Source: Marsupella aquatica (lineage: Eukaryota > Plantae > Marchantiophyta). Taken from it: a stretch of DNA of 64,000 nt. The notes below the pieces were generated by a model that ran no database searches, was not told where the DNA came from, and saw only the letters and a program-made list of their open reading frames with translations. Both the position numbers and the translations under genes were made by a program. The stretch lies in the NCBI GenBank assembly GCA_973895155.1, contig OZ316899.1:12306834-12370833 (forward strand), written 5' to 3'. This document shows positions 1,900-25,399 of this stretch, in pieces; the first letter of the stretch is position 1; each line of letters starts with the position of its first letter.

Positions 1900-3170
1900 A
1901 TGACGTACTTGGTATTGCTCATTTAAACGACTGACTATATCATTCAAGAAATGAGTTCCCCTATCACTTACTAATTCTAGGGGTGCTCCATACCTTGTAA
2001 AGATTTGCTCATACATAAAACAAGCCGTGGTGACTGCATTGTCCTTTGTCGTTGGCCTGGCTTCCACCCACTTAGTCGCATAATCCGTAGCTAAGATGAT
2101 GTACTTGTTTCTCCGAGGATGAGTTAAGGGTTTCAGGGGTCCAATGTAATCAATACCCCACTTCTCAAATGGTGCCAGAGGTAGAATGGGGTGTAGTGGA
2201 TGTCTAGTGGCCGCTTGGCCCTCATGCTCTCTGGCAAGGATCACATTGCTTGATGAACTGGTGTACATCCTTGTGTAAGGTTGGCCACCAATAGCCAGCA
2301 TCTAAAATCTTTTTAGACATGGTTACTGGTGCAAAATGTCCCCCGGCTTCTTCTCCATGCATAGCCTATAGGACCCGCTTCACTTTGCCCTGTTCCAAAC
2401 ACCTTTGAATTTTTCCATTGACTCCATGCCTATGTAAGATGCCTTTAATGCACTGATACTGCCTGACCTTTTGTAAAAAAACTGGGGCTTGTTCCCTGCT
2501 TACCCTTGCCTCTAACATTGACGTGCTGAGAAATGGTAATATGTCAGGGTACCAGGTATCCGTTACTTCCACTATGAATAGCTCTTCATCTGGAAATTGA
2601 TCGTCGATTTAGTCAATAGCTGGTTCACCTGCAATTCTTGAAAAGAAGTTGGCATTGGCATGCAGTTTCCCCGGCTTGATTTTTAACTTGTAGTCAAATT
2701 CCTGTAATAGCAGTATCCATCTTGCTACTTTGCCCGTAAGATCTGGTTTATTCACTAGGTACTTTAAACTTTCATGATCGGTATGAAAAATTACCTTATA
2801 ACCTAGTAGATAATGCCTGAACTTTTTGCAAGAGTAAATGACTCCTAAAGCCTCCCTTTTTGTGGTTGATTAGTTTCTCTCGGCATCGGCAAGCCGTCGG
2901 CTTGCATAGTATATGGGATGGTCCCTTCCCTTCTCATCCAGCTGACTTAGTACTGAACCGATACAAAAGCCTGGAACATCTACAAAGACATGAAATTCCT
3001 TGTTCCAGTCTGGTGCTATAATGACTGGGGCCTCAACTAGCATCTATTTCAATTCAATTACTACTGTCACTCTCTTTGGTGTGGGTTCAAAGTCTGCTCC
3101 TGCTTTAAGCATATTTATCAAAGGTAATGCTAGTTTGGCAAAATCTTTGATGAATCTACGATAATAGCCG
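1900..3170 (-). pseudogene. pol: Ty3/gypsy pol fragment (RT thumb, RNase H, integrase N-half), Athila-like non-chromovirus
   Basis: Minus-strand translation gives YYRRFIKDFAKLA, FHVFVD, HPIYYASRRL, TDHESLKYL, RWILLLQEFD, DDQFPDEELF, PFEKWGIDYIGP, TDYATKWVEA and LVSDRGTHF, with several stops. No archaeal-type RNase H seen. Confidence 0.93.
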
Positions 3171-3798
3171 AAAGGGTTTGGCAATCAAAGCGGGCGTACC
3201 ACTCGATGATAATCTCGATGTGGCTTACGAGGTACGCCTTCCCTTTGAGGTACACGGTCTTCCTTTGGCGCTCCATCTCCTCGTGGAACTTCTTGACAAA
3301 GAAGGAGACCCACTTTCTAGGCCGATAGTTCTCAACTTGGATGACTTGGGCGGCAGATATCTCGCCCCATGGCTATATCATGTGGAGGGCGTACCATTGG
3401 AATTCCAGCCGCTCTGCAATCTCTGGGATGAGGCACGTCCTCATCGTGAAGCCGTTGTCTACCAACCCTTGTGCGCAAAGCTTGAGGATCAGTACTTTGC
3501 TCCTTTGCCCCCTGAGGCCCATGACTCCACCCAGTTTTGTCCCTCGGGTAAGCCAAAGATGAGCTTTAGCCGCTCCTCACTCAAAGACATCACCCGTCTG
3601 TGCGTAAGGGTCTGTTGTCGGCCCTCGTTGAAGTTCTAGATGAACTCCATCATGTCTTGCCCGTAGTACCTGCAAGTGTTCCAAGGGAGGGCGGTGAGAT
3701 GTTTGAACCCTTGGGTTTGTAGGTACGTTGCATGCTTTGGATGGAGGATGTTCTTGTGAACGTTCTCTCCCATGCAATGTGTGATGCCGCCAGCACGG

Positions 3799-4618
3799 TG
3801 TCGTGCCAAAAGATTTTGGCTCAGGAATGGCTTTTATAGGGGATGATGGGCGAGGCCTCCTGGTTGGGTTGCGTGCATGCTGACTTGGAGGGGCTGCTTG
3901 GTTGGATGGATTGAGGTTTGGTGATTGGGTGACTCGTTGTCACCAGGCTTGGAGTTTGGATGAGCCTCGCTGATGGCAGCTGGCTCAGGCTGGATGGTTG
4001 GGTTTCCGATGCTACTTAAGACTTGAGCCTCGGCTCATTGAGGTTGGCGGTTGTCTATTGAGATCTGTTGAGTTGCGTTCTGTGAGTTTCGCTCCGTTCT
4101 ACAAAACTCAACTATTGTGCGGCGGTTTTGGAGTTTTGGGCAAGTGTTGGATCCAGGTGTGGAGTTTTCAATCCAGGCAGGGATTTCTAAAGTTTGGAGC
4201 CTCGTCGATCCAGGCGGAAATTTCTCAAGTTTGGAGCCTCGTTGATCCAAGCGGGGATTTCTCGAGTTTGGAGCCTCGTTGGTCCAGGCCCGAGTTTCAT
4301 GTGAGTTGTTTTAGACTAGTGGAGTAGCTAGTCGAGTTTTGGTTTTGTGAGCTGAGGATAGTTTTTCCGTCAAATTTTGAGTAGTTAGTCACTCGAGGAG
4401 TTCTACTTGACAAGTTAGAGGTAACGGCCCGCCGTAGGGCCAGCTACCAGACTCTTGCAGGCAAGCTTACTCAAGGGCACCTATTGTAACCTTTGTGAGA
4501 AAAGTAAAAAATATAAAGGAGTGAGAGTTCGCTCCAAAAAGTGCTTGTCGCCTGTCCCAATTGCAGCCAGAAACGCGCAGTTTGCCCGAGGAGCCCCTAA
4601 CTTTAAGTCCTTGCAGCA
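3799..4618 (+). repeat. 5' LTR (820 bp)
   Basis: Direct repeat of 7887-8670; about 9 substitutions in the first 190 bp by eye; one extra 37-bp unit. Confidence 0.95.
4171..4281 (+). repeat. 37-bp minisatellite in LTR (3 units in 5' LTR, 2 in 3' LTR)
   Basis: ATCCAGGCGGGGATTTCTCGAGTTTGGAGCCTCGTTG units. Confidence 0.9.
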
Positions 4619-4619
4619 T

Positions 4620-4638
4620 TGGCGACCATACTGGGGAT
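4620..4638 (+). promoter_or_regulatory. Primer binding site, probably tRNA-Arg
   Basis: TGGCGACCATACTGGGGAT begins 1 nt after the LTR end; it resembles the complement of plant tRNA-Arg 3' ends (TGGCGAC...CTGGGGA). Confidence 0.75.
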
Positions 4639-4659
4639 TCCTTGGGGCAATTGGATGAG

Positions 4660-7490
4660 ATGGGTGACTATGATGAAGTTGATCGGATCTCGAGCATCGT
4701 CATGTCGATGATGAGAACCATAAGGAAGGAAGAGCTTGAGGCGGAAAGGGCAAACAGGGAAGCCAATAGAACTACTCGGTGTCTCCAAGAGGTTCTGAAG
4801 GAGAATGGGCAGTTCGATGGGAGAAATGTGACAAGCTACCTTAAGTCTTACTTGATAGAAGCAGTTGTCTACAAGTTGGACGAAGGGACGGCGGTGAAAG
4901 AGTTCATGGTGCTGGTTGAGAAGGAGTTGAGTTCGACGGTGCGGACCATCGTTGAGTCAGCTGAGGGCTGGGATGACTTCGACCAGAAGATGAAAGAGGA
5001 GTTCCAAGCAAAGGATGCTAATTGGGTCACGCAGGCTACCTTCTTGGATTGGGTGAATGACAGGAACAAGAAGCTGAAGGGACCGCAAGAGCTCCTAAGG
5101 AAGTTCAAGAGAAGGGTGTCTCAGTTACCAAAGCGGGATGTGGGAATCATCGAGTTGCAGTGCTTGACGCTCTTCTTGAGAGTAGCCGATGAGGACCTTT
5201 GAGAGGAGCTTGAGAACGCGATGGAGATGCTGGAACCTTCGAGAGTTACCTTGTCTAACGACTGGAACCAAGTTGAGAAAGCGATGTCAAAAGTGAGCAA
5301 TCGACACCGGCGGCGAGAGCTAGACAAGGAGGCTACCACTCTTGACCTAAGGCCGTCGGAACCAATATTGAGGAAAGGGAAGCGAGAACCAGCAAAGGAT
5401 GAGATCAAACCATCGATGGATGATCTCACGGAAACAATGCAGAACCTGAAGATCTTGGCGGCACATGCGGTCAAGAATCCAAAATTGAGGGTTGCGAGTG
5501 CTCCCGAGAGGAAGCAAGAGATGTAGAGTTGGCCATGCATGTGGTGCAACAGCAAAGAGCATGACAAACAGGAGTGCCTAGACCTAAGGGAAGCTACGGA
5601 TAAAGGGCTGATCAAGTTCGTCGGTGAAGTTGGTCAGAAAAATATATTGTTTGCCGATACTGAAGAGCCAATTCCATTCAACTCCAACAAGGGAGGCATG
5701 AAGGCTTTGGCTGAGAAGCGAGCTGGGAAGCGAGTTGAAGAGGTGTCCTCTTTGCACCTGGAAGCGAATGTTTACAATGTGGAGTTGGATGGCCCCGTGA
5801 CGGAAATGGAAAAGTTTTACAAGCGCTTGGCGGATCTGGTGCGAGAGAGATCCGGATGGAGTGACCCGGTGCTGATCAATGCAATAACGGTTGAGGTTGG
5901 GGCTAGTTGGGATGCCTCAATCGAGTCAAAAAGGAAGAAAACCGACAAGGATGACACTCCGTCTCAATCAGGGGAACGAGAGAGGCTGGATACTCGAGAC
6001 AAGGAAAGAAGGGTTACATTCAAAGAAGAGGAAATGAGCGAGAAAGAGTCGGAGAAAGGGAAACCGATCAGGAAGGACCCGGGCTGGGTGCTTGGCAGGG
6101 ATGTGGACCAGGCCATGTACCCGGAGGTTGTAGCTGAGAAGTTCTAGAGCCAACAGGCTCAAGGGTTTACCAATGCCGAGTTCTTTGGCAGTATGAGGCG
6201 GGAGATCCAAGAAGCGATCTTGGAGAGATCCAAGAGGAAATGGATTTACAAAGAGGGCCCTCACACCTTGATGGGGGAGGTTGGCAAGATGGAAATTGGG
6301 AGTTTTTGAACTTACACTGCTGGGGCGTCCATGGGTTCAGGTAGTAAGCCTGCTAGCCCCAAAGAGTCAGACTTGGGTAAACCGAAGAGGGTCAAGTCCC
6401 TTGAAGAGGAGCTCATGGACTTGGACGATGAGTTCTTCAATGCGGAAGAGGAGCTCATGGGAACCGAAAGCGAAGCTGAGTCTGTGGCAAACAGGGAATC
6501 GACTGAAGGGAAAGAGCGAGAAGGCATTACCGCGCAGTCGAGGACCATTCATGTTTGGGCTCAATGAAAGGAAACGGTTATGCTTACCGAGATGGATACT
6601 GGGCTCGAGCAAGTCCAAAGAGCGAGTGCCAGTTGGAAGGAATGGAAGGCAAGGTGCGGGCGCTCATTGATACTAGCTCGGAGATCAACTTGATGGATCC
6701 AAAGGTGTTTCAAAAGGGGAATTGGCCGGTGGATAATGAGTTGCTTTGGAGTGTGAACTCGGTGAGTTCAATGAAGGACTATCTTTGGGGTGGATGTCCA
6801 AATGTGATGGTGAAGTTTAGGAATGTCAAGCAGGCTTGTAACACTTTTGTTCATGAGCACTTGTTTCCGGTGATACTAGGCATGCCGTTCATCACTGAAT
6901 GGAGGATGGAGACAAAGGTTCTGGATGATACTACCTTCATGGTGAAGGTACGGGGCAAAGATGATAAGGAGGTGGTTCAGTTTCCGGCAGTTCTACCTGG
7001 AAATGAGAGGAACCGAAAGCAACTGCGAGATCCAACAGCGGCAGAAGTTGGCATTGCTATGGGGGAGAACCAAGATGCTAAGATGGATCTTAGTGCAAAG
7101 TTCAAAGGGGAGCCAATTGCGGACCGAAAGATGGGGAGTCTAGTGTTCAAGGAAGAGTGTTACTCAGGAGAGCTACTGGACATTGGGAAGTATCTGAGTG
7201 ACTTTGGGAAGCGGCTGAAGCAGGATGGTAAAGAGTTCGAAGACATTCGAGTGAATTCTGATAAGTTCATTCTTAGAGAGGGCTACCTTTGGCGGAAACC
7301 TAAGGGCCCCATGCTAGTACTAAGGAGAGTTGTCGATTCTAAGGATGAGCAAAAGCGGATTTTGGAGGAAGTCTATGATGCTGAGGTCAAAGGTGGTTTG
7401 AAAGGAATAAGGGCGAAGGTCTGTGAGCAGATCTGAAAGGAGTATTGGTGGCCAGATTTGTATTGGGATGTTCAGGAGTATGCTGACAAT
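4660..7490 (+). pseudogene. gag: gag-protease pseudogene with integrase Zn-finger remnant
   Basis: Gag-like FDGRNVTSYLKSY; knuckle CMWCNSKEHDKQEC; protease ALIDTSSEINLM ... VILGMPF; then ILEEVYD ... YWWPDLYWDV. Multiple in-frame stops. Confidence 0.85.
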
Positions 7491-7877
7491 CGAGGGATCC
7501 ATCACAACTTGAAGAGGCAGATTCAAGAGCTTGATCGGATTGACTATCGAGTCATTGACATACGGGAGAGAGTGAAGGTTTGCAAGGTGCGAACTAGAGA
7601 TGAAATGGACTCAAGTTCCGACTTGAGCGAGTTTGAAGTCAAGGTGCTGGTCCAGGCGCATCCGTTGGACTTGAGTTTCAAAAGTGGCTTAACTGGTTCT
7701 GATTTGGATGAGTTGGACTTTGAGTTTCTGGAAAGTGGAGTGCCTAAGGCCAAGTCTGAAGGCTTTGGGTTTGAGTTTCTTGAGGAGGAAGTGGTCCAGG
7801 CGCATGGCTTGAGTTTGGACTCAGACTTAGAGGAAATATGATGGATTGGAGCAGACCGGAGGCTGCTCAGGTTTACT

Positions 7878-7886
7878 GGGGGAGGA
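7878..7886 (+). promoter_or_regulatory. Polypurine tract
   Basis: GGGGGAGGA immediately before the 3' LTR TG. Confidence 0.85.
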
Positions 7887-8670
7887 TGTCGTGCCGAAAG
7901 ATTTTGGCTCAGGAATGGCTTTTATAGGGGATGATGGGTGAGGCCTCCTGGTTGAGTTGCGTGCATGCTGACTTGGAGGGGCTGCTTGGTTGGATGGATT
8001 GAGGTTTGGTGATTGGGTGACTCATCGTCACCAGGCGTGGAGTTTGGATGAGCCTCACTAATGGCAGTTGGCTCAGGCTGGATGGTTGGGTTTCCGATGC
8101 TACTTAAGACAATGAGCCTCGGCTCATTGAGGTTGGCGGTTGTCTATTGAGATTTGTTGAGTTGCATTCTGTGGGTTCCGCTCCGTTCTGCGGAACTCGA
8201 CTGTTGTGCGGCGGTTTTGGAGTTATGGGCAAGTGTTGGATCCAGGTGTGGAGTTTTTTATCCAGGCAGGGATTCCTCAAGTTTGGAGCCTTGTCGATCC
8301 AGGCGGGGATTTCTCGAGTTTGGAGCCTCGTTGGTCCAGGCCCGAGTTCCGTGTGAGTTGTTTTAGACTAGTGGAGTAGCTAGTTGAGTTTTGGTTTTGT
8401 GAGCTGAGGATAGTTTTTCTGTCAGATTTTGAGTAGTTAGTCACTCGAGGAGTTATACTCGACAAGTTAGAGGTAATGGCCCACCGTAGGGCCAGCTACC
8501 AGACTCTTGCGGGCAAGCTTAGTCGAGGGCACCTATTGTAACCTTTGTGAGAAAAGTAAAAAATATAAAGGAGTGAGAGTTCACTCCAAAAAGTGCTTGT
8601 CGCCTGTCCCAATCGCAGCTAGAAACGCGCAGTTTGCCCGAGGAGCCCCTAACTTTAAGTCCTCACGACA
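7887..8670 (+). repeat. 3' LTR (784 bp)
   Basis: Direct repeat of 3799-4618 ending CACGACA. Confidence 0.95.
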
Positions 8671-9011
8671 ACGGTGGTTAATGATTGATTTGGCCTAGCC
8701 CGTGCTTAGCACGCGCATTAGGGGCACCGTAGGCTGTAGTTATTAGCATAACGAGACTAAGTAGGTAGTACTTATGACTAGGGAATCATTAGTTAATAAG
8801 GGGCATTTACGTTCAGGATGGCGACGGAGCGCCATTCGTACTCCTGGGTTACGAGCGTGTAAGAGGACCCTTCGGGTCGGTATAACAAATTCTCAGAGGC
8901 GGCTGCTGACACGCTCTAAACCGGACCCACAAGTGGCCAGTACACTATGAGCGTGAAAAGCTTGGCCTATAGGAAGGGAGGAGGGGCCAGTCAAACAATG
9001 AGCTCTCAGAG

Positions 9012-9018
9012 TATAAAA
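9012..9018 (+). promoter_or_regulatory. Candidate TATA box of the family-B ORF
   Basis: TATAAAA about 100 nt upstream of ATG 9118. Conserved in B (39665-39671, minus) and in diverged B' (about 24685, minus). Confidence 0.65.
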
Positions 9019-9134
9019 GGAGGGCCATTCTCTCGCATTCCACCCACACTCCATTCCGCGCGCTAGCTTTGATCTCAGCCACTTTGTCCCTCCTTTGTCG
9101 CCCACCGTCACTCCTGGATGTCTGTCATGATATT

Positions 9135-10925
9135 TGTAATATCACACTAGGGACATAAATAAATATTTAAGATCCAAAACTCGGTATTCGTTCCCATGCA
9201 TGGAAGAACATGTAAGGAATGATTTTCTATGATTTAGCACTTATGAATGAATAAGGTAACAAAAACACAAAGTTGAGCCTTTTACTATGGTTGCTCAGCA
9301 AGGCATAGTTTTAAATGTCTGCTTGACATTGAAAATAAAATTAACAAATGGAAAAAAATTAATAAAACACAATGAAAACCTTGAGGTATGGTGAGGGAGT
9401 TAGGAAACAACCAAGGTGACTCCTCAACATAACTTCATTTGATATGATTTAGGTGGTATATCCGCAAGAACATTTCTGGAAAGGATTACGGTACTAGGAT
9501 GATTACTAAAATGCCATCAACATGTCTCAACTTTTCCTTCCAAGGTACTGAGTGGAGACTAGTAATCAATCACTCTTGTATTCAATCGGTACTTTGTGCC
9601 ACAAATAAGAGACACCATCATAATCAAATTTGAAGCCATAAGTAATTGGTAAGTAACAATCTTTGCATCCCGTGCACAAGCAATGTCACGCCAAAAACTA
9701 TGCATCAAGAACTAAGGAATATGTGAAACATCACCAACAAGGAATCTATTTTCACATACTCAAAAGATTTAACAATCACAATAATTTTACTTCAAGGGTC
9801 CAAATTTCTCATTCATTTAGACTTGAAGGGGGAAGAATTCCTTTGTATTAAGTACTCATATGCAATGGAGTGCTTGCTACAAATGGAGGTAACAAAGTTG
9901 CAATCTTGCAACTGAGCGCTCATGAAATTTCTTCACACAAAAAGTGGCAAAAACTCTACTACATATAGGCTAGCAGAAACTAAAGGGGAAAAGAGATAAT
10001 GAAAGGACATGCCCTATCACATCTTAAGGGTCATAAACTAAAGTTAAAAAGTATGAAAATATGAAAATATGCTACAGGAGTACTCAAGGTTCACTAGAAT
10101 GTTGCTAGAATGAAAAACTAACCAAAAGTTATCCCTAGTGTAAACTGGAGTAAAAGTGTTTTTTTGCACTTTTGTGGTAAAATTAATAAATAGTGAGTTT
10201 ATCATAATTTTAATTTCTAACATAAAAGTCAAAATGGGGTGAAACTTTCATAGGTGGAAGATTTACATACATGCTTCATGTTGGAAAAATTTTAGACTTT
10301 TCTGATGTGTCTAAGTGCCTTAATAAAATCGATAAAAAGTGCTGTTGGATATAAAATATATTATTCCGGAAAATTTTCTAAGTGTCGGAAGCGCCGTTAC
10401 GCCTTTGCGCTTTGGAGCACTAGCGCCGTTGCGCCTTTGCGCACTCACGCTACTGCAAAACTAAAAATGCTATAACTTCTAAACAACATGTCAGTTTTGG
10501 CCGATACTTTCAAGGGAGGGTCTGCTACATAAGAGCTATTTCCTGAAAAATTATGAGACTTTTCTAACTACTTTAACTATTTAACTAAAATTGCAGAGAT
10601 TGACTGATCTTAACTATTGTCGTGGGAGAACTAATCTTCTTGGAGTAGTGCTGTCTGATCTGGTTGCTGAACTCTTGTGTAGGTATTCTCTTGCATAGCT
10701 TCTTGAATTACATCAATGTCTTGAGTGTGATGCCGATGAAAGGTAAAGACTTCCGCTGTCGTTCAATATCCAGAACAGGAAGTAGTCTCCAGTGTAGCAT
10801 GACATTAGGTAAAGTGTTCAGTTGATCTAAATTGCTACAAAAAGTAACTATACTGCACCTTTGAGTTAGAAAAAGTTCAAAATTTATAATTTTTCTATCA
10901 TTTCTAACTAATGTACTGTATTACA
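9135..10925. mobile_element. Solo LTR (family D), 1791 bp, AT-rich, non-coding
   Basis: Perfect TGTAATA...TATTACA termini; TSD ATATT at 9130-9134 and 10926-10930; absent from the homologous B copy (about 39550). Confidence 0.92.
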
Positions 10926-12160
10926 ATATTGTCCAGTTTGGCCCTTCAATTTTGGCTGCAATTCCTATCCGTGGGAAGTCACTTAGCAAAGTCCTTAGCC
11001 AAAGTCAACCCGCGCCGATACGAGACCAAAAGAGCTTACGAGAGAGCCATTCGCTTAGCCGGCCGTAATCACTATAACAGCAATTTCAACCTCCCATTCC
11101 AGAGTGAGCTTTGCCAAGTCGACAAAATCAACAAGTACTTCTTTATCGATGAGAAGTACATCGGTTTTAGGGAAGCGCTCCTTTGGCTTCCGGAGAGGGT
11201 TTACCATCTCCCGGGCATGATAGACTTGCAGCCGCACCACTACGACCATATCCCCGTCTGGGTTCAAGCATCCATAGATTGTCAGTTTGTCCTTGCCCAA
11301 ACAAGTGAGACTCCTATCTTAACGACACTCGACTTCCCCAGGGACTTCTTGAATCTAATGGCGCCTCCTCCAGCTGCAACTGGTGCCAATTTGTCGGTAC
11401 CTACGTCAACACCGCCTTGGCCTCAGCCAAGCCGATCTCCACCACCGGTTGCACCACCTCTCCGAGTGCAATCCGTGGTAAATGCATTAAATATTAGCTA
11501 CAAAGACCAAGAGGCTCACCCTCCCCTGGACCGACGGCCACGGGGTACAAATAAGCGTGCGCCAAGCAACCCGACGCCACTCCAACAAGCCCGAGGGGAT
11601 AACACGGTGACTGTACCAGCCCCGACACTGATACTCATGGCGGTAGCACCACCGCCACCCAACCAGGAGGATGGGGAGATGTCCCCCTCTTCTAGTCACC
11701 CCGGGAATCAGTCGCAGGGTAGGAAGAGAAAGGAACCCGCAGCTATATCCGGGCTGCATTTGGCCACGGTTGTGGTGGCCAACCTGACCCCAAGCATGCA
11801 TGCTACTTGAAGACCCAAGGGTTTGAGCATCTCGCCTCTCTCCCTTGGAATGGAAGTAGGTACTACGGGCAGGATATGACAAAGTTCATTCAGAACTTCA
11901 ACGAGGCCTGCCAACAAACCTGAGCGCATGGGAAAGTGATATGTCTCAATGAGGCACGTCTGAAGATGATGTTTGGCCTACCCAAAGGAATAAACCAGGT
12001 AGAGTTGCGGGCTCCTGGGGGCAAGGGAGCTAAATACCAGTCCTCTAGCTTCCCGACCGAGGGAGCAATGGACAATGGATTCTTGATGAGGATGTGCCTC
12101 ATCCCGGAGGTAGTAGAACGCCTGGAGTTCCAGCGGTATGCCCTCCACATGATGGAACCA

Positions 12161-15100
12161 TGTGATGCATAGACAGGAATCACTCGGCCAGTTAAGTGGG
12201 TAAACCAGGAGGGCACCCTAGGAACACCTTAGTATAGGGACAAAACAAGGAAAATATAAACCATTAGGGGCAACCATGGAACCCGGGCCGAGGCCGGAGG
12301 TAAGGACGCTGAGGGTGAAAACCCGATTAGGGTTAGGGCGCGTTAAGCATCGGCGGCTAGGAAGGATCAACGGGAAGAAGGACCGGCAGAGGAGAGGGGT
12401 AAGGAGCGCTTGCAGGAGATGGTGGCTCATTTGCGAGCACGAACTAGGCAGACGACTACGGGAGGCCAACTACTGTCAGCTGCTTAGGCAAGCACTCGGG
12501 GAGAGAGTAGATACCGACGATCGACCTAAGGAGGGTATGAGCAACGTCAATCAAGCGGCACATTTCTGGGGATGCCTGTTCGAACGGGCAACTGAGTACA
12601 TCAAGACTTACGAAGACGAGGAATCAGAAAGGGCAGCTCGAGAATGGCAGGAGCTCGCTCGATTGTGGGAGCTGCAGAAGACGGCTTTCTTAGGAGGGGA
12701 ACTCATCAAAGACGAGTTCCTGTGGACGCCTACTTCCAATCAACTCGACGATCTTCTGTTTTGCAAAGACAGCGTCGTCGGCATCCGAGAGGCCATCAAG
12801 AACTGCAACGACATACACTGGGAATTAAAGGGAAGCACGGAAAGGTGGACCCAGGCAACGGTGCTAGGAGAAACCTCCACAGCAGCAGAGATGAAGAGGA
12901 AGGGAGCCGTCAACGATGAAGCCACCCCGGCAAAAAGAACGAGGTCGGCGGCACCAAAGAAGCCAGCCGAGCAGCAGAGCAGGAGGCAGGGAGAAGCCGA
13001 AGAGGAGGAGGTCGATCCCATCAAGGCCATTCCAACCAGGGATGACACCTGGAAGGGCTGGGCGGCAACCCTACTGGTGGAGGTGCAACTACATTTTGCA
13101 CGGGAGGAGGATGCATGCTTCACGGCCATGCAGACCAAGAAGTACCAAGGCTTCATGGCCGGATCCGGCTTAGAGGCCTTTGTAAGATTACCATGGCTGA
13201 AGCCGGAGGTACCGGAGTCAGACCTATTAGAATTCGTGGGGTCATGGGAACTCGAGACCAATTGCACGAGGATATATGGGAAGGATTTCTATCTTACTCC
13301 CAAGGTGATTGCCGATGCAGCAACCAGGCATGCAAAATCTGCTGAAACTACTGGAGAAAGAAAAGAAATCGGCATCGGCAACAACAACGGCAACGGCAAC
13401 AATGCAGGACACTACTAGAGGTAGGCCTACACCGGCTCACAAGAGAAAACCCCTTTGCTGGAGACAAGGAGAGAATCAGGCCGGAATCCAAGCCAGGTGT
13501 TCGAATGTACGTGGGAACCTCAAGCTCCGAATCTAAGGCAGAATTGCTTGAAGCTCCTACCGACGAAGAGGAGAGGGAGAAGCCGGACGTCCAAGAGGTA
13601 GAGGAGGCAGTGGAGGACTGCAGCCATGATAATTCCGGCTATGGGTCGGACCATCACGTTCCAGGAGTAAGGACCTGTGGCCGGTTTGTCCCCACACTTC
13701 CAAGGGTAGTGCGAGGGGACCCCAACCAGCAGAGTAGCCCTGAGTCTCCCCCACCAGATGTTGCTCCCCCGAGCTTCGACGGCATAAAACAGACGGTGCA
13801 GGAATTTCAGGAGCGAATCAGGCAGGAAGAGGAGGCAGCCCTGGCTAGGGAAAAGGATTTACCAGGAGGAGATTGGCCGGAGGACATCAGGCGGCTAGCC
13901 GAAAAAGGAAGCAAACCTCTAGCCACGATTGAAGAGATCCGCAGGTCGGCTTGGGAGCAGAGGCCGCGATGGGCGATGCCGATCACTTCTACTTACTCCA
14001 CCTACGCTAAGAATAGAGCCATGGAGTATGGTGAGATGTGTGGGGAACTTGCGCTCGGCATCTTTGGAGAGGAGTTGGAGGTAGGACCCTTTTCCATAGG
14101 GAGCAGTTGGAGAAGCACCAATTAGAAGAAGCGGTGGCTTTAGAGAGAAGCAAGAAGGACGAGGTCATTCGGCGGCTTAGGAGGATGGAAGCCGAGATTG
14201 AAGATCTAAGGGCGGCCAAGAAAGCCCAAGATGAACTACGGATTAAACGACATGAGCTGAACATCATGCAGGGGCAGTTGGACACCGCGCAGGCTGATAA
14301 TCAAAATATCAAGGATAAACTGACTCAGACGCAGGGAGAGTTGGCCGACACAATCAAAGAGAGGGAGAAGTGGAAGCAAGAGCTGAAGAATACAGAGGAG
14401 GCCCATATAACAGCCAACAGCCGGGCCATGGCGGAGACCCAAAGAAAGGAATGGGCGTTGAAGGGGGAGCTCGAGAAAATCCGCGGAGCCCTTGAGCAGA
14501 AGGAGGCCGAGTTAGGGAAATCCTATCAAGGGATTATGGAGTTGCAGCAGGAGCTTGCGTCCCTGACGGCCAGCTTCAAGGCCGACCTAAGGGAGAAGGA
14601 CGAGATGCTCGAACAGACTTACGCCAAGATGAACCAGATGGAGTCTGTCATCATTGCAGAGCTCGACAAGGAGCTAAGAGCAACCCGGGAGGAGAGGACT
14701 ACCTTGAAACAAGAACGGGAGGAAGCCCAGAAGGAACTAGAGGAGGCACGCAAGGACCTGGATGAGACCCAGGAGGAGTTGGAGGAAATCACGAGGAAGA
14801 TGGAGAACCTCCAGCGGCGGGCCGACAACCAAACGGAGCGGCTGAAGAAACAAGCCGCAGTATTTAAGTGCTTGTCTTCATCAGGCCCAACTCCAATTGG
14901 GGCAACCAAGTTACCAGGAGTGGTACTGGCCGAAGAAAAAGCTGCGCCAACTGCACCAGTGCCGGAAGTAAGTGGGAAGGGGAAGGGACCAGCGGCCGAA
15001 CCAGAAAAGAAGAAAAAGCGGAAACCTTCAGGGTCAAGGAGTAATCCGACTCCACAAGCCGTGGTGACCAAAGAGGTAGAACCAGCACCATCCTCCGGCA

Positions 15101-16311
15101 TGAATACAGCAATAGATCCCGCTATCATCACAGGTGGGGGTGGTGCGGCCCAAGCCGAACTACTCAGTAACGAGGCCGGTATTCCAGATCCGCCTCTTGA
15201 GCAGGCCGGGGAGACCGTAGCCGAGGCTGAGGCCGTAACTGATTCCCGAGCCGATGCCAACGCCGATGGTGGACCCAGTCAGGCCGATGGAGAGTTGACT
15301 CAGTCAAGGGCAGGTAATCTGTCAGGGAATGAGCCTACGGCAGTGGCTGAGGAGGAAGCGTTGGGGGCGTCCATTAAGGATCCACCACCGGTGTCGTGAC
15401 GGTGCAAGGGCGCCGTTCCTTTTAGGGAGGGCGGACGTGGAGGGAGGAGGCGTGAGTGGGCAGGGCGGGCGCGGATCTCCAAGTTTAGGATTAGGATCAG
15501 GACCAGGAGCGGCCCTGACACTTAGCTTAGTGGGATTGCGGTCCCACTGGTAGGAGCAACACTTGTGCTCCTGCCTTGCTGTACATAGGTAGATTCGGGC
15601 AAGTAGATTACTGTTAAGTAGATTAGGCTTATGATGCAAAGAATGGTGGATCCACTACCAGGATAAGTACCTGGGCAGCGGGGAGCTCAGGGCCTCTTCT
15701 TTAGCAAGTTTTTAGTTTGCACTAGCCGGGCTGGGATCAAGTAGTACGAGAAGCTCTCGGTTAGTCATACAGTGACCCTTGTGTATATTCATGTTTCCTC
15801 ATGCCTAAGAGCTGAATAGAGTTGGCCTCACGGCTTAGTTCGCAGAGCTTGTGTATGAGATGTACTGTTTGTATGGCAAGTGCATGGTATGACTCAGTCA
15901 GAATGAGTCATTTTGCTATTTGTGTGTCGCATTAACTTGTGTGAAGAGTGCCCACATCAACCAGAAGGAAGGAAAGTAAGCAGGGGAGTGAGAGTTGGAT
16001 GTGTCGAGCTGAGAGAGGTCTTAGCGGCTTAACCAAGCCTATTGGGGATCATTCCGGCGGCGGAATCCAAACATACCTAACAAGACGGAAGGGAAGACAG
16101 GGGAAGGCCTAGATTAGGCCGGCTACGTATCTCATGACCTGATGAAGGATCTGTCCAGTATATGTGTGTAAAATGTTAATAGTAGTAGTAGAAGGTTAGC
16201 AGCGTCCCATGCCGCTAAGCCGCGGAAACGGCCTCGCCAAGCGCAAAACCCACGGGAATCGGCATGAGCTGGGGGGTTTCTTGGGTTTAGGGAGCCATGG
16301 GACGCACCACA
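12161..16311 (+). mobile_element. Family A LTR-like unit (4151 bp) with both termini
   Basis: TGTGATGC...GCACCACA; TSD AACCA at 12156-12160 and 16312-16316; TATAAA at 12255-12260; 509-bp internal deletion at about 13312. Confidence 0.95.
12460..15399 (+). pseudogene. Family-A ORF: helical N-domain, bipartite-NLS-like motif, conserved globular domain, long coiled coil
   Basis: ORFs 12276..13418, 13505..14125 and 14038..15399 are frameshifted pieces of one ORF of about 1150 codons when compared with the copies at 32044-35080 and 44400-47872. Confidence 0.85.
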
Positions 16312-17762
16312 AACCACGGGGCAAAATATCCGCCACCCAGGTCATACAAGTAGAGAACTTTTGGCCTACGAGGTGGGCGTCCTTCTTTGTCAAGAAGTTC
16401 CACGAGGAGATGGAGCGGAGAAGGAAGACCTTATACCTTGGCAGAAAGACGTACTTCGCAAGCCACATCAAGATCATCATCAAGTGGTACGCCCATTTTG
16501 ACCGCCGAAGTCTCCCCCATAGGAACGAGACTGAATTGACCCCGTCAAAGTGGGTATTCCTGGCTCAGGAGAGGCGACCGCAGCCCAAGGCCCAAAGCCT
16601 GGCAACCGCAAGCCCTACTACCCCGGCCCTACAACTAGCCGCTACCGCCCCGCCAAGCGTACCCGTAGATGCAGTTATTGCGACCTTGGACACGATTAAC
16701 CAAATCAACGCGATTGAAGCCAGGCCGGCTGAGGCCAGACCCGAACCCGACATTACGGTGGCCGAGGAGATCCCCCCACCCCCCATGGCTGTGCAGGAGA
16801 ACCGCCCAGCCCCAGTGGAACCAACCCCTTTGATCGACTTACCTCAAGGGCTGTATGTCTCCACTCCAACTCCCGCGCGGGCTGGGGTCTGTCCTTGTCC
16901 GAATCCGGATGGGCATAGTCTGGACCACCCGGAACTCTTTGCGCCAGGCACGTTTCTGAACGGTTGTTGGGAGATTTCTCTCAACAGATCGCACGGGATA
17001 TCGAGGAGTACATGGAATGGAAGGTGGCCTACTTCTTCAACCAAAAGTTGGTTGGGGCCGTAAAGGCAAGACATGCGCAAGCTGAGACGGCGTAGAGAAT
17101 AGAGCAGTATCGGGTTGAGTTTGCCTACCTGAAGGATGAAGTAGTGGCCCTGGAGACTGAACTCCAACAACTGCGACCTTAGGTAACGGCCATGGAGGAT
17201 CAGATTGCCAAAGCCAGGGCCCGGACAGCCTTAGCAGAGCAGGCTGGGTTTGGAAAAGACTCTGAGATCGCACCTAGATTGACGGTTTGAAGGGGCAAGC
17301 TGTCAGTTGGCAAAAGGATGTAGAGGAGGCCGTTGCTCGGGCCGAGCGGGACACGGCCAAGATCGATGCCCTGAAGGCGGAAGTAGCGCGGATTCAAGGA
17401 GAAGCCACAAAGCAGGCCTAGTTGGTGGATAAGCTGACGAGCAACGCCCAACTACTGGAGGAGGCATGCCAGGAGGCCACGGAGGAGATGGACGCGGCAA
17501 AGCAAGAGAATGAATCTCTGCTGGACCAGGTCCAGCTACTCAAACAGGACGCCGACAGACTTAGGAGGCAACGGGATAGCTGCTCCCACTCGAGCGGCTC
17601 TAGCAAGCGTGCCAGGCATTAGCAGTGGAGTAGGATTACAATAGAGTTAGGAGTAGCTAAATCAGGCTAAGTATAGGGACAAGCACCTGCCCTAGTTAAA
17701 ACGACACTGGCAGACTGTCCAGCCTGCGTAGATTAGAATCTACTAATAAGACAAGTCGTTTT

Positions 17763-18700
17763 GGCAAGGGATTGCAGGGAGGGAAGAGATGTGGTGGCTA
17801 AGGCAGATCAAGAGAATAATGATGAGGACCTGGTGGGAACTTTTGAGGAATTGGATGCAGTGGCGGAGGGGGATCCGGAGGAGGTTCTTAGAACCCAACT
17901 TGAAATGAACTTGCGAGTAAGACAAGGAGCGGGGCTGATGGCACTGCGAGGAGAGGACACTGTCACAGCTGATATAGTAGCTATTGAATCGCTGATGAGT
18001 AAGGAAAGGACTTCTTCCCCGGTGCAATTGCGAGAAACACCTTTGGAGATGGGGCAGGGGGAAGATGCGGGCAAGGAGGACTCCTTGCCCTTGGAAGGGC
18101 GGGAGCAGTTGGAAGAAGAGGAAGGGGAAAAAAGAACAAAGCTAATATCTCTGGGGCCAGATGTGGAGGAAAATAGTGCAAATTCAAGGCTTGATGCGGA
18201 GGCACAATGCTATGAACCCTCTGGTTCGAGGATAGCTCCTAAGGAGACTAAAATAAGAAGGGATGCACGCAGCGACAATATGGATTCAGATGCATATTTG
18301 TATCATGGTGACACTGACATGGAAATGTTAGAGTATGAGGCGTATGTATCAACTAAAGGAAAAGAACGGGCGAGAAAGCTAGAGAAGAGAACTCCGCCGG
18401 CCACAAAAAAGGATCGGGCAGTGCATGACTCTAAAAAACAACGGTCTCTAAAGTTCTCACATAGTGTAACGGCTGATGCAGGGGGAGAAGTGGAGATTAA
18501 GGAGATTGGAGGGACTACTAACAGTGCTGCTGGGCAGAGTGTGGATGGCTCGACTGAGCTGTAGGACTCCTTGCTGCTAATAGTAGATTCACAGATGGAG
18601 GAGACCGGAGAGATAGCCATTGGCACACCAAGGTGCCGTAAGGGGGGGAGTGTGAGCTCGGCTACCTCTTCGGGTGGGCGAATGCAGATTTAGCTCATGG
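17763..18700 (+). pseudogene. LINE ORF1 C-terminal remnant
   Basis: Acidic low-complexity ORF 17761..18564 directly upstream of ORF2. Confidence 0.6.
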
Positions 18701-18724
18701 GTGCTGGAGCCGGGGGCGGAGGGG

Positions 18725-21700
18725 ATGGGAGAAATTTTGAGGGTGGTGTCCTGGAATGTATGTGGGCTCTACGAACCAAACCGGAAGAATGTGGTGAAAA
18801 ACTGAATTGCAACAAGGAAGGAACGAATAGATGCATTGGCCCTGCAAGAAATCAAGGCGGGTCAGTTCAGACTGGATATGGCCATGAGAGTAATTTTGCC
18901 AAATTATCAATGCGTTGCATCGACACTGGAGGAAGGTCGGGGAGGCACGGCATTACTAATTCATCCACAATTCAGGATGGTAGCGTCTGGAGTGATGGAT
19001 AGGGGGCGAGCAGTATGGGCGATTGTGGAGTATCAGGATTGTAAATTTGGAACCCTGAGTGTTTACGCACCGAATACTGCTCGACTTAGAGCCATTTTGT
19101 GGCATGAGCTGAAAATGCATCTTCCTCGGGAGAACTGGATTGTATGCGGGGACTTCAATATGACCAAAATTATAGAGGACTCCACATGCGATTCTCCAGT
19201 GATTAAGGGACGAGAAGCAGAGTTTTGGAGATTTTTGAAAGTTAGATGTAATTTGGTGGATGCATTGCTAATTAAGGGGGAGGTACGGGGGGCACGCTAC
19301 ACATGGAGAAGAAACAAGATGGGGTCTCTGGTTCAATCGAGACTGGATAGTTTCTATCTTAGTGCGAATGGGGACTGGATTTATAAACTGGTTGATTTGG
19401 TGCATGACGGGGGATTGGCACTGTCTGATCATGACCCGGTTATGATCTGCATTAGTCTCATGGAAGGAAGGCAGGAAGGAAAATCGGGACTAAGAAGATC
19501 TCTGTTTAAGGCTAATCCTGCCCTGGTCAGGATGGAAGGCATGATCAAAATACTAGAAAGGGCATGGGTGGAGGGAAAGGGTGACTGTATTGAACCTATT
19601 CTAGCCTTTGACAAGGCTTGCAGGAATATGAGAAGCAAATACATTGAGAAGCAAGCAACACCTAAAGAGAAAGATGAAGAAATGCTTTTGTTGAGAAATA
19701 AGCTTCGGGTGTTGAAAATGGAGATCCTGGAGGAATACACAGAAGAGGAGTTGCGGGATTACGTGGATATGGAGGATCAAGTACATGCGGCAGAGTTAGA
19801 GGAGGCCCACAGAGGACGAAGGTTAGCACGAATTAAATGGTTGGGTGAGGGGGAGGAACCTTTGAGGTTTTACTTCGCAACTATAAAGGTGAAAAGAGAA
19901 CGGGAGGCAATGAGGAGCCTCACGGTGGAAGATGGCAGGGTGATCACAGATCCAACGATGATATTGAGAGAAGTAGAGAAGACATGTAAGGAATTATATG
20001 CGCCTAAGGAGCCATCTAGGCATGAACGGATGGAAACTCTGAATGAGCAAAGCAGACTGCTGGAGCACACAAAGTGTGTGTTGACGATTACGGAAATACA
20101 AATGCTGGAAGGGCTGCCAACACAAGAAGAAATCAAAGAAGTCTTGTGGTTGCTTCCTAGAGATAAGGCCCCTGGACCAGACGGGATGACAGCGGAGGTT
20201 TATCAGGCCTGCTAGGTGTTCATGCAGGACGACGTGGTAGCGATGGTGCAGGAATTTTGGCTGACGGGGAACTTGGCAGCAGGGATTAAAGAGGGGATGA
20301 TTAAGTTCTTTCCGAAGAAATCTGATAAGCAGTATCTTAGGGACTGGCGGCCTCTTACTATGCTGAACACAGGCTACAAGCTGATTGCAAAGTTATTGGC
20401 GTTAAGGCTAATTTGAATCCTACCAAAGGTTATTAGTTCTCAACAAACAGGTTTCATTCCAGGAAGAAATATACTGGAGAACATTTCGCTGGCTTGGCTA
20501 ATGTTTGACTGGGTGAAAAATAGGAAGGTTGAATCACTTTTCCTTAAGCTAGATTTTGAGAAAGCGTTTGACAGAGTGGATCAGAGCTATATATGGGAAA
20601 CTATGCACTTGTTGGGGATAAGCGGAACGTTCATAAAACTAGTCAAGGCGCTATTACAACAGGCATCCTCAAGGATTTACGTGAATGGGTTGCTTTCCTC
20701 TGAGATTGGACTGTCGAGGGGTGTTAGGCAAGGTTGCCCTCTTTCACCTCTTTTATTTGTGATATCAACTCAGCCTTTAATGGATTTTATGGATGCTGAG
20801 ATGGAGGCAGGGCGTTTAGATGGCATTCAAGTCTCAGCGGACTTGAGGATATGCTATAGGTTCTTTGCTGATGACTTGGGGATGTTCATCCCGGCTAAGC
20901 AGAGGAGTTTCCTAAAAGCAACAGCAGTGATACAATGCTATGAATTGGCCACGGGGGCCAGACTGAATTTGCATAAATCAATAGTCATCCCGCTAGCACT
21001 GTTGAGTATTCCAGCATGGTTACAAGAGACTGGATGTGTGATTAGCAAGAAAGGAGAGCTACAGAAATATCTGAGTGCTCCTTTGGGGGTGGACCTGAAA
21101 ACGGAACAACTGCATAGCTTTTGTCTGGATAAAATTGGGAAGAGGTTATCTTCTTGGTCGAACAAAATGCTTACCTTTACAGGACGCTCGCTTTTGATTA
21201 GGCACATACTTCAAGCAATTCCCATTTATCATACAATGTTCCTAAAGGCGTCTGCTGGTTTGGCTAGGAAAATGACTGCACTGTGCAGGGATTTTTTATG
21301 GGGTCATAACAAGGAAGGGGGCAAGCGAGTTCCGCTGGTTTCCTGGGCACGTCTCTCGCATCCCAAGTTGGATGGCGGACTGGGGTTTAAAGATTTCCGC
21401 AGTCACTCGGATGCGCTGTTATCAAAATGGTTTACCTGTGCAATGGACTACCCGGATACGGAATGGGCTAGAATGTTTGCTGAAAATCTGAATAGGATTG
21501 GATGGACTAACTATAAAGAGATGCGGAGGAATGGGTATACCTTCCGGGACAAAATGGTACTTGACTGTCCCGGGGGACTCCACGGAATGGCATATACAGG
21601 GGATCTCAGGAAGGCCTGGGAATTGCTGTGAGCCAACCTGATTTTCTGTCCCTCTGAGCGGATACCTGGTAGATGGTCGATTTGTGATGTGCTCCGATGT

Positions 21701-22644
21701 TTAAAGGGAACGCAGGCGTGGAGCAGTGGTGACAGGGAAGCAGTGACAGTCCTTTGTGGATGACTGGGTATCAGGAGCACGCAAGATTTATGGTCAAGTG
21801 AAAGGAATGGATGGCGAGGGCTGGCAGGACGGTAGTTACATCTACGTGGATTCTCAGAGGAACACTTAACACTTGGACGCAGATTCATTGGGCTGTTAGC
21901 TGACATCCCCAGCTGTGAGTGGGGGGTGGAGCCTGGGCCGGAGAGCTGGTGTTGGGCTGACAACCCTACTGCTCTCAGGAGGTTCAGAGTATCAAATAAG
22001 AGAGCATATCAGATGCTGCGAGAGGAGGTGAGAGATTTACAGAGTTGAAATAGGACATGGGGAATAGCAAGCACGGGCGACGAATGGAGGGCAAGGTGGG
22101 CGGGGCTGTGGGGATTGGACTTGTCAATGAGGGCTAAGACATTTATGTGGCGAGTAGTAGCATCGGGGCTCTTCACCGGGGTTAGGGCGGTCAAAATTGG
22201 TAAAGGAAATGGAGAGTGCAAGCTATGTCCTGGAACATTGGAGACTATTTCACACTTGTTCATGACCTGTCAACATGCACAGCGCTGTTGGCAGCTCTGT
22301 GCACAGAGCTTTGAGGGCATATTTGCAGATTATTTTGGGGGGCTGCTTGGGATGATAAATTTGTTGTGGGTAAGGAATATAGGAAGATAGTTAAAATTAT
22401 TGTCTTATACCAGATATTGTGGATGATCTGGTTGGGTTGAAATGAGCATATGTTTGTGATGGGCGGGGCCCAGAGGTTTGATATGCGATTCACTCTCTCG
22501 GAGGCGGTGGACCATGTCATTGCGGTCGGGCTTGCACTGCCAGCAAGCAACAGACGGACTAGGCTGCTGAGAGTGAAAGAGATTATCAATGCAGAGCGGC
22601 TCACTTGGTTGAGGCGTAGAGACTGCTGGATCACATCAGGATAG
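18725..22644 (+). pseudogene. LINE ORF2 (APE endonuclease, reverse transcriptase, zf-RVT)
   Basis: SWNVCGL, LQE, GDFN, SDHDPV; KAPGPDG, WRPLTMLN, LDFEKAFDRV, QGCPLSPLLF, FFADD; CKLC...HLFMTC. Many nonsense codons. Confidence 0.96.
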
Positions 22645-25049
22645 TGTAGGAATGACTGATGGAAGGGTAGTAGGCTGGCTAGGTGGATGGATTGTAGTAG
22701 AATAAGTTTGTTAAGGTTGTTAGGATGGTCTCTGGTGCCGGATGGCTGCTAGGAATACATGCTACCGGTGCTGCTGGTAAGCGGATAGCAGTTGTGTGTG
22801 CTGGGCTGGGATCTGTTGTGCTGGTATTGGTGGTGACTTTTCTGTTTGTTTCCCCCCGGCCATGGGGTTTGCGTGGCCCACAAAAGTTATAAAAATTCTA
22901 AAAATGTTTAAAGGAAGACAAGCCGTTTTCCGGCCTGACAGCCAGCTTAGTTAGGATCTTAGTTAGTGAATATTCAGGCACGAGGCCACTCTGATCCTCA
23001 GCCCTTAGTATTTAGTGCACCCCTCGGTAGAGGTAGGGGGGTTTTAGTCTCAGAGTTGGACGTCCGCGGTATGTGCGGGGAGTCCAGACCTCTATGAGTG
23101 AAAGAGTACCAAGGGGAGGGGGTACGACTAATCTTCCTGGGCGAGTGCGGAGCCGGGCTCCGTTGTAGTGTACGCCCCTCAGCCTTGGACCTGTTCATTC
23201 AAGAGCTGTCGGGTCAACCAAGTGTAAGTGTATGTTGACTCTTGTAGTAAAATCCTTTCCCATTATTTCCTTCGTGTAAATCGAGATTGTATGCTTGTGT
23301 GTGTGTGTGTATGAATCTTGTGTATGGGTGCCAACGCTTGGCTGAACGCACTACCCAAGCCGTGCACGGGGTGCATCTTGCGGATAAGTGGTTGCAAGCC
23401 CGGGTTGAGTGCCTGTATCATTGGATCTGGATCGAAGGCGGACAACACAAAGGCTTAGAAGCCCGTAAGCTGGGGTCAATCTCGCTATCGACTAAAGTAC
23501 GTTCCGGCGGCGGAACACAAATCATACCTAAGAAGTGTTTGTAGGTAACAATAGACACACTTAGCGCTAGTTTACAGGAGTTAGGGGCATTCTGTGCTTC
23601 CCTCCCTGCCCAAACCCTCATACTAACAAAGGAAATGCCTGTCTAAGCCAAACCTCAAGTTAAGACCCACGCTGACAACGTGACACAATGCATGGTCAAT
23701 TTGGCCATGGCAACAGTGGCCACGGGTAGACTAGATACTGCAGCCAATTCCTTCCTCTTCAGTCCTTGAGAGTAGTTCCCGGGATGGCTCGTAGAAGGGG
23801 ACATCTCCCCGTCCTCCCTATCCGGTAGGGGTAGCGCGACCCCCGTCAAAACTGGTGTCGCGGCTACTACGGTTACGGTGTCATCAATCAAAACCATCTC
23901 TTGGGTCCGGGCTTGTGCGGGTGGCGATGTGTTACCCGGCCTGTGTTGGCCTGCCCCTTGTGGTGTCCATTTTAGGGGAGGGTGAGCCTCCTCGTCCTTG
24001 GAACTGATGTTCACCGCGTTTACCACAGATCGTACCCAAAGGGGCGGTGCAACCGATGGTGGAGATCAGCTTGGCTGAGGCCAAGGTGGTGTTTGTGAAG
24101 GTGCCGACGAGTCGGTGACGGTTGTATCTGGAGGAGGCGCCGTAGGATTCAATAAGTCTGAGGGGAAGCTGAGTGATGTCAAGACAAATGACTCACCTGT
24201 ATTTGTACTACCAAATTGATAGTCTATGGAGGCCTGAACTTTGGTGGGGATATGGTCAAAGTGGTGCCGCTGCAAGTCTATCGTGCCTGGGATCGTGAAG
24301 ACCTCGTCCGGAAGCCAAAGAAGTGCTTCCTTGAAGCCAAGGTACTTTGTACCGTTGAAGAAGAATTTGGCAATCTCGTCGTCTCGACAGAACTTGCTCT
24401 CGAACGGGAGGCTCAAGTTGCCATTGTAGTGAGAGGAACTGGCTAGATGGATGAGTCATTCATACTATCTTTTGATTTTGTACCAGCGCAGGTTGAATTT
24501 GGCAAGCAACTTCGCTAGATGATTTCCAATGGATAGAAATTGAAGCCAAAAGCGAAGGGCCAAACCTGACATAATCGTGATAGACATAACGGCGGTGGAT
24601 GAATAAGGAGCAAATGTGCGAGCTGGGATCAAAGCTGGCATGAGGAGTGAAGTGTTGATGCAATGCAAGAGAATGGCTTGCCTTTTATACCCTGAGGACT
24701 TGTCGGCCGATTGGCCCCTCCTCCTTTCTGATAGGCTGATCCTTTCACACTTGCAGTGTACCAGCCACTCCGCAGGTCCGGATCAGGGCGTGTCAGAGAG
24801 CCGCCTCCTTGATCTGTTATATGGACCCAAAGGAGATGTCCATAACACGATCATAACCCGGCGGTACGGGTGGAGCTCCGCCGCCAGCCTGAGCGTGAAT
24901 GCTTCTTATTGACTATTGGTGTCCTATTTATGATTACTACCTCCTTTAGTGTTGTTATGCTAATAACTATGGACTACTAAGTCCATAGCGCGCATGCTAA
25001 GCACGGATTAGGCCAGATTACTCATTACCGCTGTGCTGGCGGTGTCACA

Positions 25050-25312: not shown

Positions 25313-25399
25313 ACTTCAGTCTGGGGGGTTTAAATATTATACTTTACAATTGTCCTAAGAATGGGGCAATGGCCACCTTGATCCTAACAAACTATCTCC

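Follow-up and report, generated by a model that had tools for sequence, protein, structure and literature searches.

Extra open reading frames (ORFs) are a known feature of the Ogre/Athila/Tat (OTA) retrotransposons of plants, where they are recorded by their 5′ or 3′ position in the available part of PMC6317226 and are placed in the internal region of the element in PMC7264820 and in the accessible portion of PMC11963269. In the same part of PMC6317226, 5-bp target site duplications (TSDs) are the rule for Athila and Ogre, and the long terminal repeats (LTRs) of non-chromovirus elements reach about 5 kb. Solo-LTR formation normally strips a retrotransposon of its genes. Here, we describe units from the liverwort Marsupella aquatica that have the ends of an LTR and enclose a long accessory gene. 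They lie in a window of 64,000 nt (assembly GCA_973895155.1, contig OZ316899.1, positions 12,306,834 to 12,370,833 of the forward strand), to which all coordinates below refer, and one of them, A1, is organized as follows.

12161-16311, + strand: unit A1, with complete ends TG...CA, sitting in the ORF of unit B1
12156-12160, + strand: left TSD of A1, AACCA (right copy at 16312-16316)
12537-15399, + strand: accessory gene of A1, broken (five frame breaks, including deletions of 513 bp and 84 bp)
14100-14870, + strand: coiled-coil-like segment, rich in E, K, R, Q, L and A and nearly free of Pro and Gly, dN/dS 0.17-0.23
15400-16311, + strand: non-coding 3′ region, 88-90% identical among A copies
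16052-16079, + strand: 28-bp motif common to the 3′ regions of A and B, found by regular expression in A1-A4, B1 and B2
16202-16305, + strand: predicted long hairpin, closing 6 nt before the 3′ end

These units are probably solo LTRs (about 4.7 kb in family A and about 3.9 kb in family B) of a gypsy lineage outside the chromoviruses, with a complete accessory gene inside its LTR. The heaviest argument is that they combine integrase-type ends and a TSD with the lack of any repeat from which they could rebuild their own ends; by the mechanism of retrotransposons, a unit without terminal direct repeats cannot regenerate its ends from RNA.

An earlier note, made from the sequence alone, had reported TG...CA ends and 5-bp TSDs for two A copies, and both the flanks and the uninterrupted sites bear this out. 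A1 and A2 alike start with TGTGATGC and end with GCACCACA, and they are flanked on both sides by AACCA (A1) and by CCCCT/AGGGG (A2). The A1 target occurs uninterrupted, with a single AACCA, in the paralogous unit B2 at 38287-38291, and the A2 target is uninterrupted in other A copies; since such homologous sites exist in the window, the two TSDs are not chance repeats. The A1 insertion site is also bridged by sequencing contigs of runs X1 and X2. All four complete A and B units of the window have TG...CA ends with a short imperfect inverted repeat and a TSD of 5 bp, with an uninterrupted homologous site for three of them, so that the random TSD lengths named in the note as a sign against its reading are not seen on this scale. 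The terminal inverted repeat in A is imperfect (7/8 bp).

The note's description of the interior, with no internal LTR pair, primer-binding site (PBS), polypurine tract (PPT), gag or pol in A units, was likewise confirmed by self-BLAST, a repeat finder and Pfam. No Pfam gag or pol family was found in any A or B frame scanned, no terminal direct repeat of A1 or A2 emerged from word-7 self-BLAST, and none was present among the 20 largest repeat families per unit (the best 20 of 38 and of 37). The short hidden direct repeats that would betray a terminal-repeat retrotransposon in miniature (TRIM) or large retrotransposon derivative (LARD) layout were therefore looked for and none was found. The further termini at 744, 31140 and 42671 are real, and all three are 3′ ends. 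A TATAAA at 12255-12260 (+ strand) stands where a TATA box had been placed, 95 bp from the A1 5′ end; it falls short of a full TATAWAW because the next base is C, and it is a putative promoter. The unit length of about 4.7 kb holds for the aligned family (4,729 columns, four copies) but not for the single copies, since A1 measures 4,151 bp and A2 4,077 bp. A1 is short of 513 + 84 bp of frame, and A2 of 669 bp, among them the end of the ORF and the greater part of the 3′ region. Because of this 669-bp deletion, the 3′ sequence of about 900 bp is complete in A1, A3 and A4 but mostly gone from A2. Pairwise identity among A copies is 84-86%, with 93% for A2/A3.

The accessory gene forms a family frame of 1,141 codons between the ATG at 12537 and the stop at 15399, and it probably reaches about 39 codons further upstream. 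The single long ORF of the earlier note exists at this family level but not in single copies, none of which is intact: every copy has stops, frameshifts or deletions, with five frame breaks in A1 (two at the edges of the 513-bp and 84-bp deletions) and two internal stops plus one frame break in A2. Nei-Gojobori dN/dS was 0.28-0.32 in five of the six A copy pairs and 0.50 in the closest pair. By segment, A pairs gave 0.12-0.29 in the central domain, 0.17-0.23 in the coiled coil and 0.20 in the N-terminal domain, and higher values (0.26-1.24) in linkers and tail; between A and its diverged subfamily A′, the central domain reached 0.11 (confidence interval 0.07-0.18). Shifted-frame controls returned 1.79 and 1.29, and the 3′ region read as codons 0.65-0.73 with intervals that include 1. 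A ratio near 1, which the note had held out as counter-evidence, is far from the observed value of about 0.3 (0.11 for the central domain, A vs A′); purifying selection has acted on the accessory gene. A single coding frame under such selection takes up about three quarters of the unit.

The feature is real and broader than first described, comprising two families and four subfamilies (A, A′, B and B′). Family B (3.95 kb) was absent from the earlier account and has the same layout as A: B1 and B2 each contain a broken ORF with the central domain of A and about 900 bp of 3′ sequence, and the 5′ end TGTGAYGC is common to both families. Ahead of its TATA, B has an LTR-like region of 355 bp. B′ is 73% identical to B, and dN/dS is 0.27 for B1/B′ and 0.41-0.63 for B1/B2. 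The copies in the window other than A1 are:

44058-48134, - strand: unit A2, complete ends, TSD CCCCT, nested in the A4 ORF, with a 669-bp deletion near the 3′ end
31140-35083, - strand: unit A3, 5′ 762 bp gone, whole central domain at 34287-34997
42671-50244, - strand: unit A4 (42671-44057 + 48135-50244), 5′ part gone beside a CACTA transposase remnant
744-1902, - strand: A0, an A′-type unit with intact 3′ end and a large internal deletion, directly abutting an integrase fragment
2-743, + strand: A′ fragment, host of the A0 insertion
35095-35883, - strand: fragment of the diverged subfamily A′, directly abutting an integrase fragment
3780-23685, + strand: unit B1, TG...CA, TSD CAATG, split by four nested insertions including A1
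36082-40026, - strand: unit B2, 3,945 bp, TG...CA, TSD CATTT, TATAAAA at +356, related broken ORF
3172-25049, - strand: B′ (23691-25049 + 3172-3774), a diverged B unit with intact 5′ end, host of B1

A TGG 7 nt after the A0 terminus was dropped as a PBS candidate; it is more likely host A′ sequence (judged by eye), because the homologous A′ frame resumes after a 1-bp gap.

Also missed by the earlier note were two loci at which A′ is directly preceded, in the same orientation, by a gypsy integrase fragment:

1900-3172, - strand: gypsy pol remnant (end of reverse transcriptase (RT), RNase H, integrase) upstream of A0, a candidate autonomous partner (RT_RNaseH E 1e-16, rve E 3e-9)
35884-40426, - strand: integrase remnant of the same family (35884-36081 + 40027-40426), split by B2, upstream of an A′ fragment

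Both fragments of this integrase family found by self-BLAST adjoin A′, and their breakpoints differ. Between the two loci, the integrase is 88.9% identical over 162 bp and A′ 88.9% over 171 bp, and such matching divergence is expected of two decayed copies of pol + 3′ LTR. In the neighbouring pol remnant, integrase comes next after RNase H, without an additional RNase H in between, as in Athila-like elements; the other possible positions of an additional RNase H lie outside the remnant. A search of viral contigs with the integrase fragment revealed no related locus. The proposal of the note that a whole accessory gene sits inside the LTR thereby gains indirect support from two integrase-A′ junctions, but not the direct support of a unit pair flanking gag-pol in the window.

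The protein comprises N-terminal and central domains and a coiled coil. The label of a nuclear-like coiled-coil protein fits the coiled-coil-like segment but is incomplete, as it leaves out the conserved central domain, which resembles transposon accessory domains. Pfam coiled-coil matches to 14100-14870 were all sub-threshold. Basic clusters in the translation look like what we take to be nuclear signals, and no transmembrane segment was detected in the four open pieces scanned (best 19-residue Kyte-Doolittle mean 0.89). The accessory protein had no Pfam match to PF10536, PF03078, PF20167 or PF04195. The Atlas neighbours of the central domain were unnamed streptophyte clusters first (0.90-0.91), then DUF1985 (0.90) and PMD (0.88); with named clusters only, ATHILA ORF-1 (0.87) and Transposase_32 (0.85) followed. 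As a set, these neighbours are suggestive of a kinship with the accessory domains of plant transposons (PMD, DUF1985/VANC and Athila ORF1), which we treat as a lead. The available part of 10.1101/2024.09.27.615353 notes a resemblance between PMD and the DUF1985 domain of VANC; models in the portion of PMC13547354 at hand show both VANC and the Athila domain as coiled-coil oligomers, and the PMD, VANC/DUF1985 and Athila domains are linked in the accessible sections of both and of PMC5418596.

A HMMER search with the central domain against 1.84 billion representatives yielded 16 matches, four of them at E 1e-10 or better. Ten were looked up, namely two Calypogeia fissa proteins (E 1.7e-4 and 4.2e-4), which alone have a plant name and point weakly to a liverwort host, seven unnamed proteins and one bacterial match, P0008, named as a gliding protein. 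P0008 and P0014, the latter with helicase-associated repeats, were dropped as chance. The N-terminal domain of B matches the Calypogeia protein CAM6122807.1 (z 10-12), which has the central domain too, and that of A matches B weakly (z 0.7-2.7) and the Calypogeia protein modestly (z 3.0-4.2). No solved structure matched the accessory protein in sequence or, with models of low confidence, in fold, a histone H2A row (E 0.066) in the structure search being taken as chance, and word-index protein searches gave no relative. The central domain found no related locus among metagenome and viral contigs. An 18-nt terminus pattern hit 30 metagenome loci, which were dropped as chance since no match extended beyond 25 bp.

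The 3′ region is itself constrained, because its difference of about 10% between copies compares with 0.36-0.46 at synonymous sites. A purine-rich run follows the stop codon in A. The 28-bp motif is the best DNA match between the A and B 3′ regions (E 0.004; six copies by regular expression). The A hairpin of about 105 nt has z scores of -1.4 to -4.2 in five copies, with two-sided change at 3 of 35 pairs and little covariation. As a feature common to A and B the terminal hairpin was rejected, the B values being z 0.2 and 0.6. Rfam gave no match at gathering thresholds, and no known ribozyme or RNA family was recognized.

Contigs from four sequencing runs were mapped on A1 (the family is listed for 13 runs, none of them from RNA, and those with small shares were left aside), and those of all four cover all 30 bins of the unit (12,668, 22,761, 587 and 84 records), which fits a large repeat family, although the record numbers are not a copy number. 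Runs X1 and X2 hold thousands of variant family contigs. Some contigs of runs X5 and X6 reach 98-99% identity to A1, though A1 is 84-86% identical to the other copies in the window; A1 thus belongs to a young subfamily that is present too in runs with other organism labels.

If the units are solo LTRs, the parent would have had the structure LTR(gene)-PBS-gag-pol-PPT-LTR(gene) and would have been copied by reverse transcription; after recombination between its two very long LTRs, a single LTR with its gene would remain within the original TSD. The gene would be transcribed from the 5′ TATA in full and solo copies alike. With a TATA so close to the 5′ end that also starts the genomic RNA, the gene would lie in the repeat and unique 5′ parts of the LTR (R/U5) as the first cistron of that RNA, like an Ogre-type 5′ extra ORF moved across the PBS, and the strong-stop DNA would measure about 4.6 kb. 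Alternatively, the gene would be in the unique 3′ part (U3), and the 3′ 900 bp would contain a second promoter. For the protein we predict a nuclear coiled-coil oligomer, the central domain of which may bind the element's own DNA and counter silencing in the manner of VANC and PMD, with the 28-bp motif common to A and B as candidate binding site. DNA binding and anti-silencing is, from the domain comparison, the likeliest role, which we propose tentatively and at somewhat less than even chances; integration targeting or particle transport may be its function instead.

Several observations weigh against the solo-LTR interpretation. Within the 64-kb window, no pair of A or B units surrounds a gag-pol region, and all four complete units are solitary. 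A convincing PBS was found at none of seven 3′ termini and a PPT at none of five intact 5′ termini; a control gypsy element in the window shows both. The integrase linkage consists of two loci with short overlaps and concerns subfamily A′, not A, and nesting plus deletion could mimic it, since the units often insert into each other and B2 sits inside the integrase. In run X6, the three contigs that extend past the 3′ end disagree (agreement 0.5; 24 of 1,529 loose-end rows). If the promoter is at +95, the very long strong-stop DNA mentioned above would be required. As for the protein, Pfam returned nothing for the central domain or its relatives, with no PMD, ATHILA, DUF1985 or Transposase_32 match; the top Atlas clusters are unnamed, the named ones do not exceed 0.90 and, in the ranking of named clusters only, the top family is flagged as probably wrong (4/10 agree). 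The two AlphaFold models are of low confidence (pLDDT 42 and 40).

Part of this evidence would also suit stand-alone, non-autonomous TG...CA gene cassettes that have no full-length parent and are moved in trans by a gypsy integrase without a terminal direct repeat. Each of the four complete units is solitary with its own TSD, neither PBS nor PPT occurs at any of 12 termini, the promoter-gene-3′ cassette with its terminal hairpin is self-contained, and runs X1 and X2 contain thousands of variant contigs of the family. We nevertheless regard this as unlikely: the inverted repeats span no more than about 8 bp, a linked parent would account for the two integrase-A′ junctions, and 12 termini from one window are a small sample. 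To our knowledge, no route has been described by which a unit that lacks a repeat could restore both of its ends from RNA, and LTR integrases are not known to excise. A shade more doubtful is the bolder version in which parentless single-module mobile anti-silencing cassettes have borrowed the gypsy integrase and formed at least two high-copy families, perhaps with the hairpin and the 28-bp motif used in copying.

Two further explanations were weighed. In an ordinary Athila-like parent, the extra ORF would lie between pol and a short 3′ LTR, and the units would be a rearranged derivative (LTR 5′ end + ORF + 3′ LTR) that later spread. Integrase upstream of an ORF in sense orientation is also the Athila layout, and the purine-rich run after the A stop codon suits it; yet nothing in the 3′ region corresponds to the 5′ ends of A1 and A2, the same rearrangement would have to be assumed separately for A, A′, B and B′, and the unit, once formed, could spread only as an LTR or by an unknown route, which makes this very improbable. 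We give least credence of all to DNA transposons with integrase-like ends (Ginger-like, or of the miniature inverted-repeat (MITE) or Pack type) that carry a VANC-type anti-silencing gene as in VANDAL and depend on a DDE transposase in trans. Ginger elements, too, have TG...CA ends and a fixed TSD, and DUF1985 is the best named Atlas cluster in the unfiltered ranking. PMD and VANC genes are carried by DNA transposons according to the available part of PMC5418596. Against this, the inverted repeats comprise 7-8 bp only, no subterminal repeats were seen among the families listed, Pfam detected no transposase in the units, and the 355 bp ahead of the TATA in B are LTR-like. Mutator TSDs, moreover, are about 9 bp long. 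On balance, the units are best read as solo LTRs.

The window is a nest of transposons (LINE, copia, a CACTA remnant and gypsy remnants), and no host gene was recognizable among the window frames scanned. Of eight A/B insertion sites, four interrupt the ORF of a further A- or B-type unit and a fifth a similar extra ORF, and run X2 contigs join the A 3′ end to A-internal places. As the two families already fill about 28 kb of the window, targeting may, but need not, be involved. A3 is inserted in a long decayed coding stretch (25339-31139, - strand) with an acidic linker and a coiled-coil-like part; it contains a tandem duplication of 2.2 kb (85% identical), has a PPT-like purine run near 25300 and may be a conventional internal extra ORF. 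The cut-off 5′ side of A4 is abutted by a CACTA tnp2 transposase remnant with an adjacent PHD-finger fragment (50512-53260, - strand), and a GC-rich repeat-like stretch (40430-42670) with a PBS-like sequence on the + strand near 40500 lies between the integrase remnant and A4. An AT-rich 1.8-kb insertion (9135-10918, 35% GC) is located near the B1 ORF start, and a long interspersed nuclear element (LINE) with endonuclease and RT frames (17763-22914, + strand) in the B1 3′ region. The gypsy-like element at 3801-8667 (+ strand) has LTRs of about 810 bp (90% identical), a PBS, a PPT and a 4-bp TSD, ACGG, in line with the NCGN preference reported for Phygy; its three longest frames gave no Pfam domain. 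A copia element at 58000-63433 (+ strand), with an intact frame of 1,528 codons and 193-bp LTRs that are 99% identical, is a recent insertion.

If the solo-LTR interpretation is true, a gene-bearing LTR leaves an expressible gene behind at every solo-LTR event and doubles the gene in each full element, and if the protein counters silencing, solo LTRs would be helpers of their family rather than scars. The role of plant extra ORFs would become testable, with gene, promoter and candidate binding motif contained in one unit of less than 5 kb. In bryophyte genomes such units would be annotated as orphan host genes; the two C. fissa matches to the central domain, which are weak, are entered as 'unnamed protein products'. 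The parents would escape LTR finders whose maximum LTR length is set short.

Our full-text literature searches brought up no plant LTR with a whole gene inside, subscription journals and Repbase not being covered, and no described lineage with identical LTR-borne ORFs, which the earlier note had raised as an objection; this is not proof of absence. The accessible parts of PMC12885004, PMC10508981, PMC2844528, PMC13317346 and 10.64898/2026.09.17.752431 mention no such unit. The accessory gene is likely placed where no plant example turned up, inside the LTR. What is found here is a selected gene inside integrase-type ends, and the unit likely behaves as a solo LTR with an OTA-type accessory gene, its membership being unproven as long as no parent element has been seen.

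Among known systems, the OTA elements share with our units the 5-bp TSD and LTRs of up to about 5 kb, as far as the available texts of PMC6317226, PMC7264820 and PMC11963269 go, and in those texts their extra ORFs are, like the accessory gene, long, with PMD, Athila ORF-1 or Transposase_28 domains, coiled-coil or SMC-like parts and a suspected nuclear role. The OTA ORFs, however, are located in the internal region, before gag or after pol, whereas the accessory gene lies between TG and CA ends with its own TSD. The units resemble solo LTRs in their TG...CA ends, short imperfect inverted repeat, 5-bp TSD, TATA and lack of an internal region, and differ from typical ones in that about three quarters of the unit is a selected coding frame and that the parent is known here from no full copy. 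TRIM and LARD elements also lack gag-pol and have a 5-bp TSD, but they possess two terminal direct repeats, a PBS and a PPT. VANC (DUF1985) of VANDAL and the PMD proteins MAIN and MAIL1, which are the nearest named Atlas clusters, likewise combine a helical domain with a coiled coil in a transposon-borne accessory protein; they are angiosperm DNA-transposon or host genes, and their homology to the accessory protein is a lead only. Genes inside LTRs are known from animal retroviruses, in which sag of mouse mammary tumour virus and nef of human immunodeficiency virus, of about 200-320 codons, lie in U3. The units described here resemble them in coding inside the LTR, but with about 1,150 codons and in a plant element.

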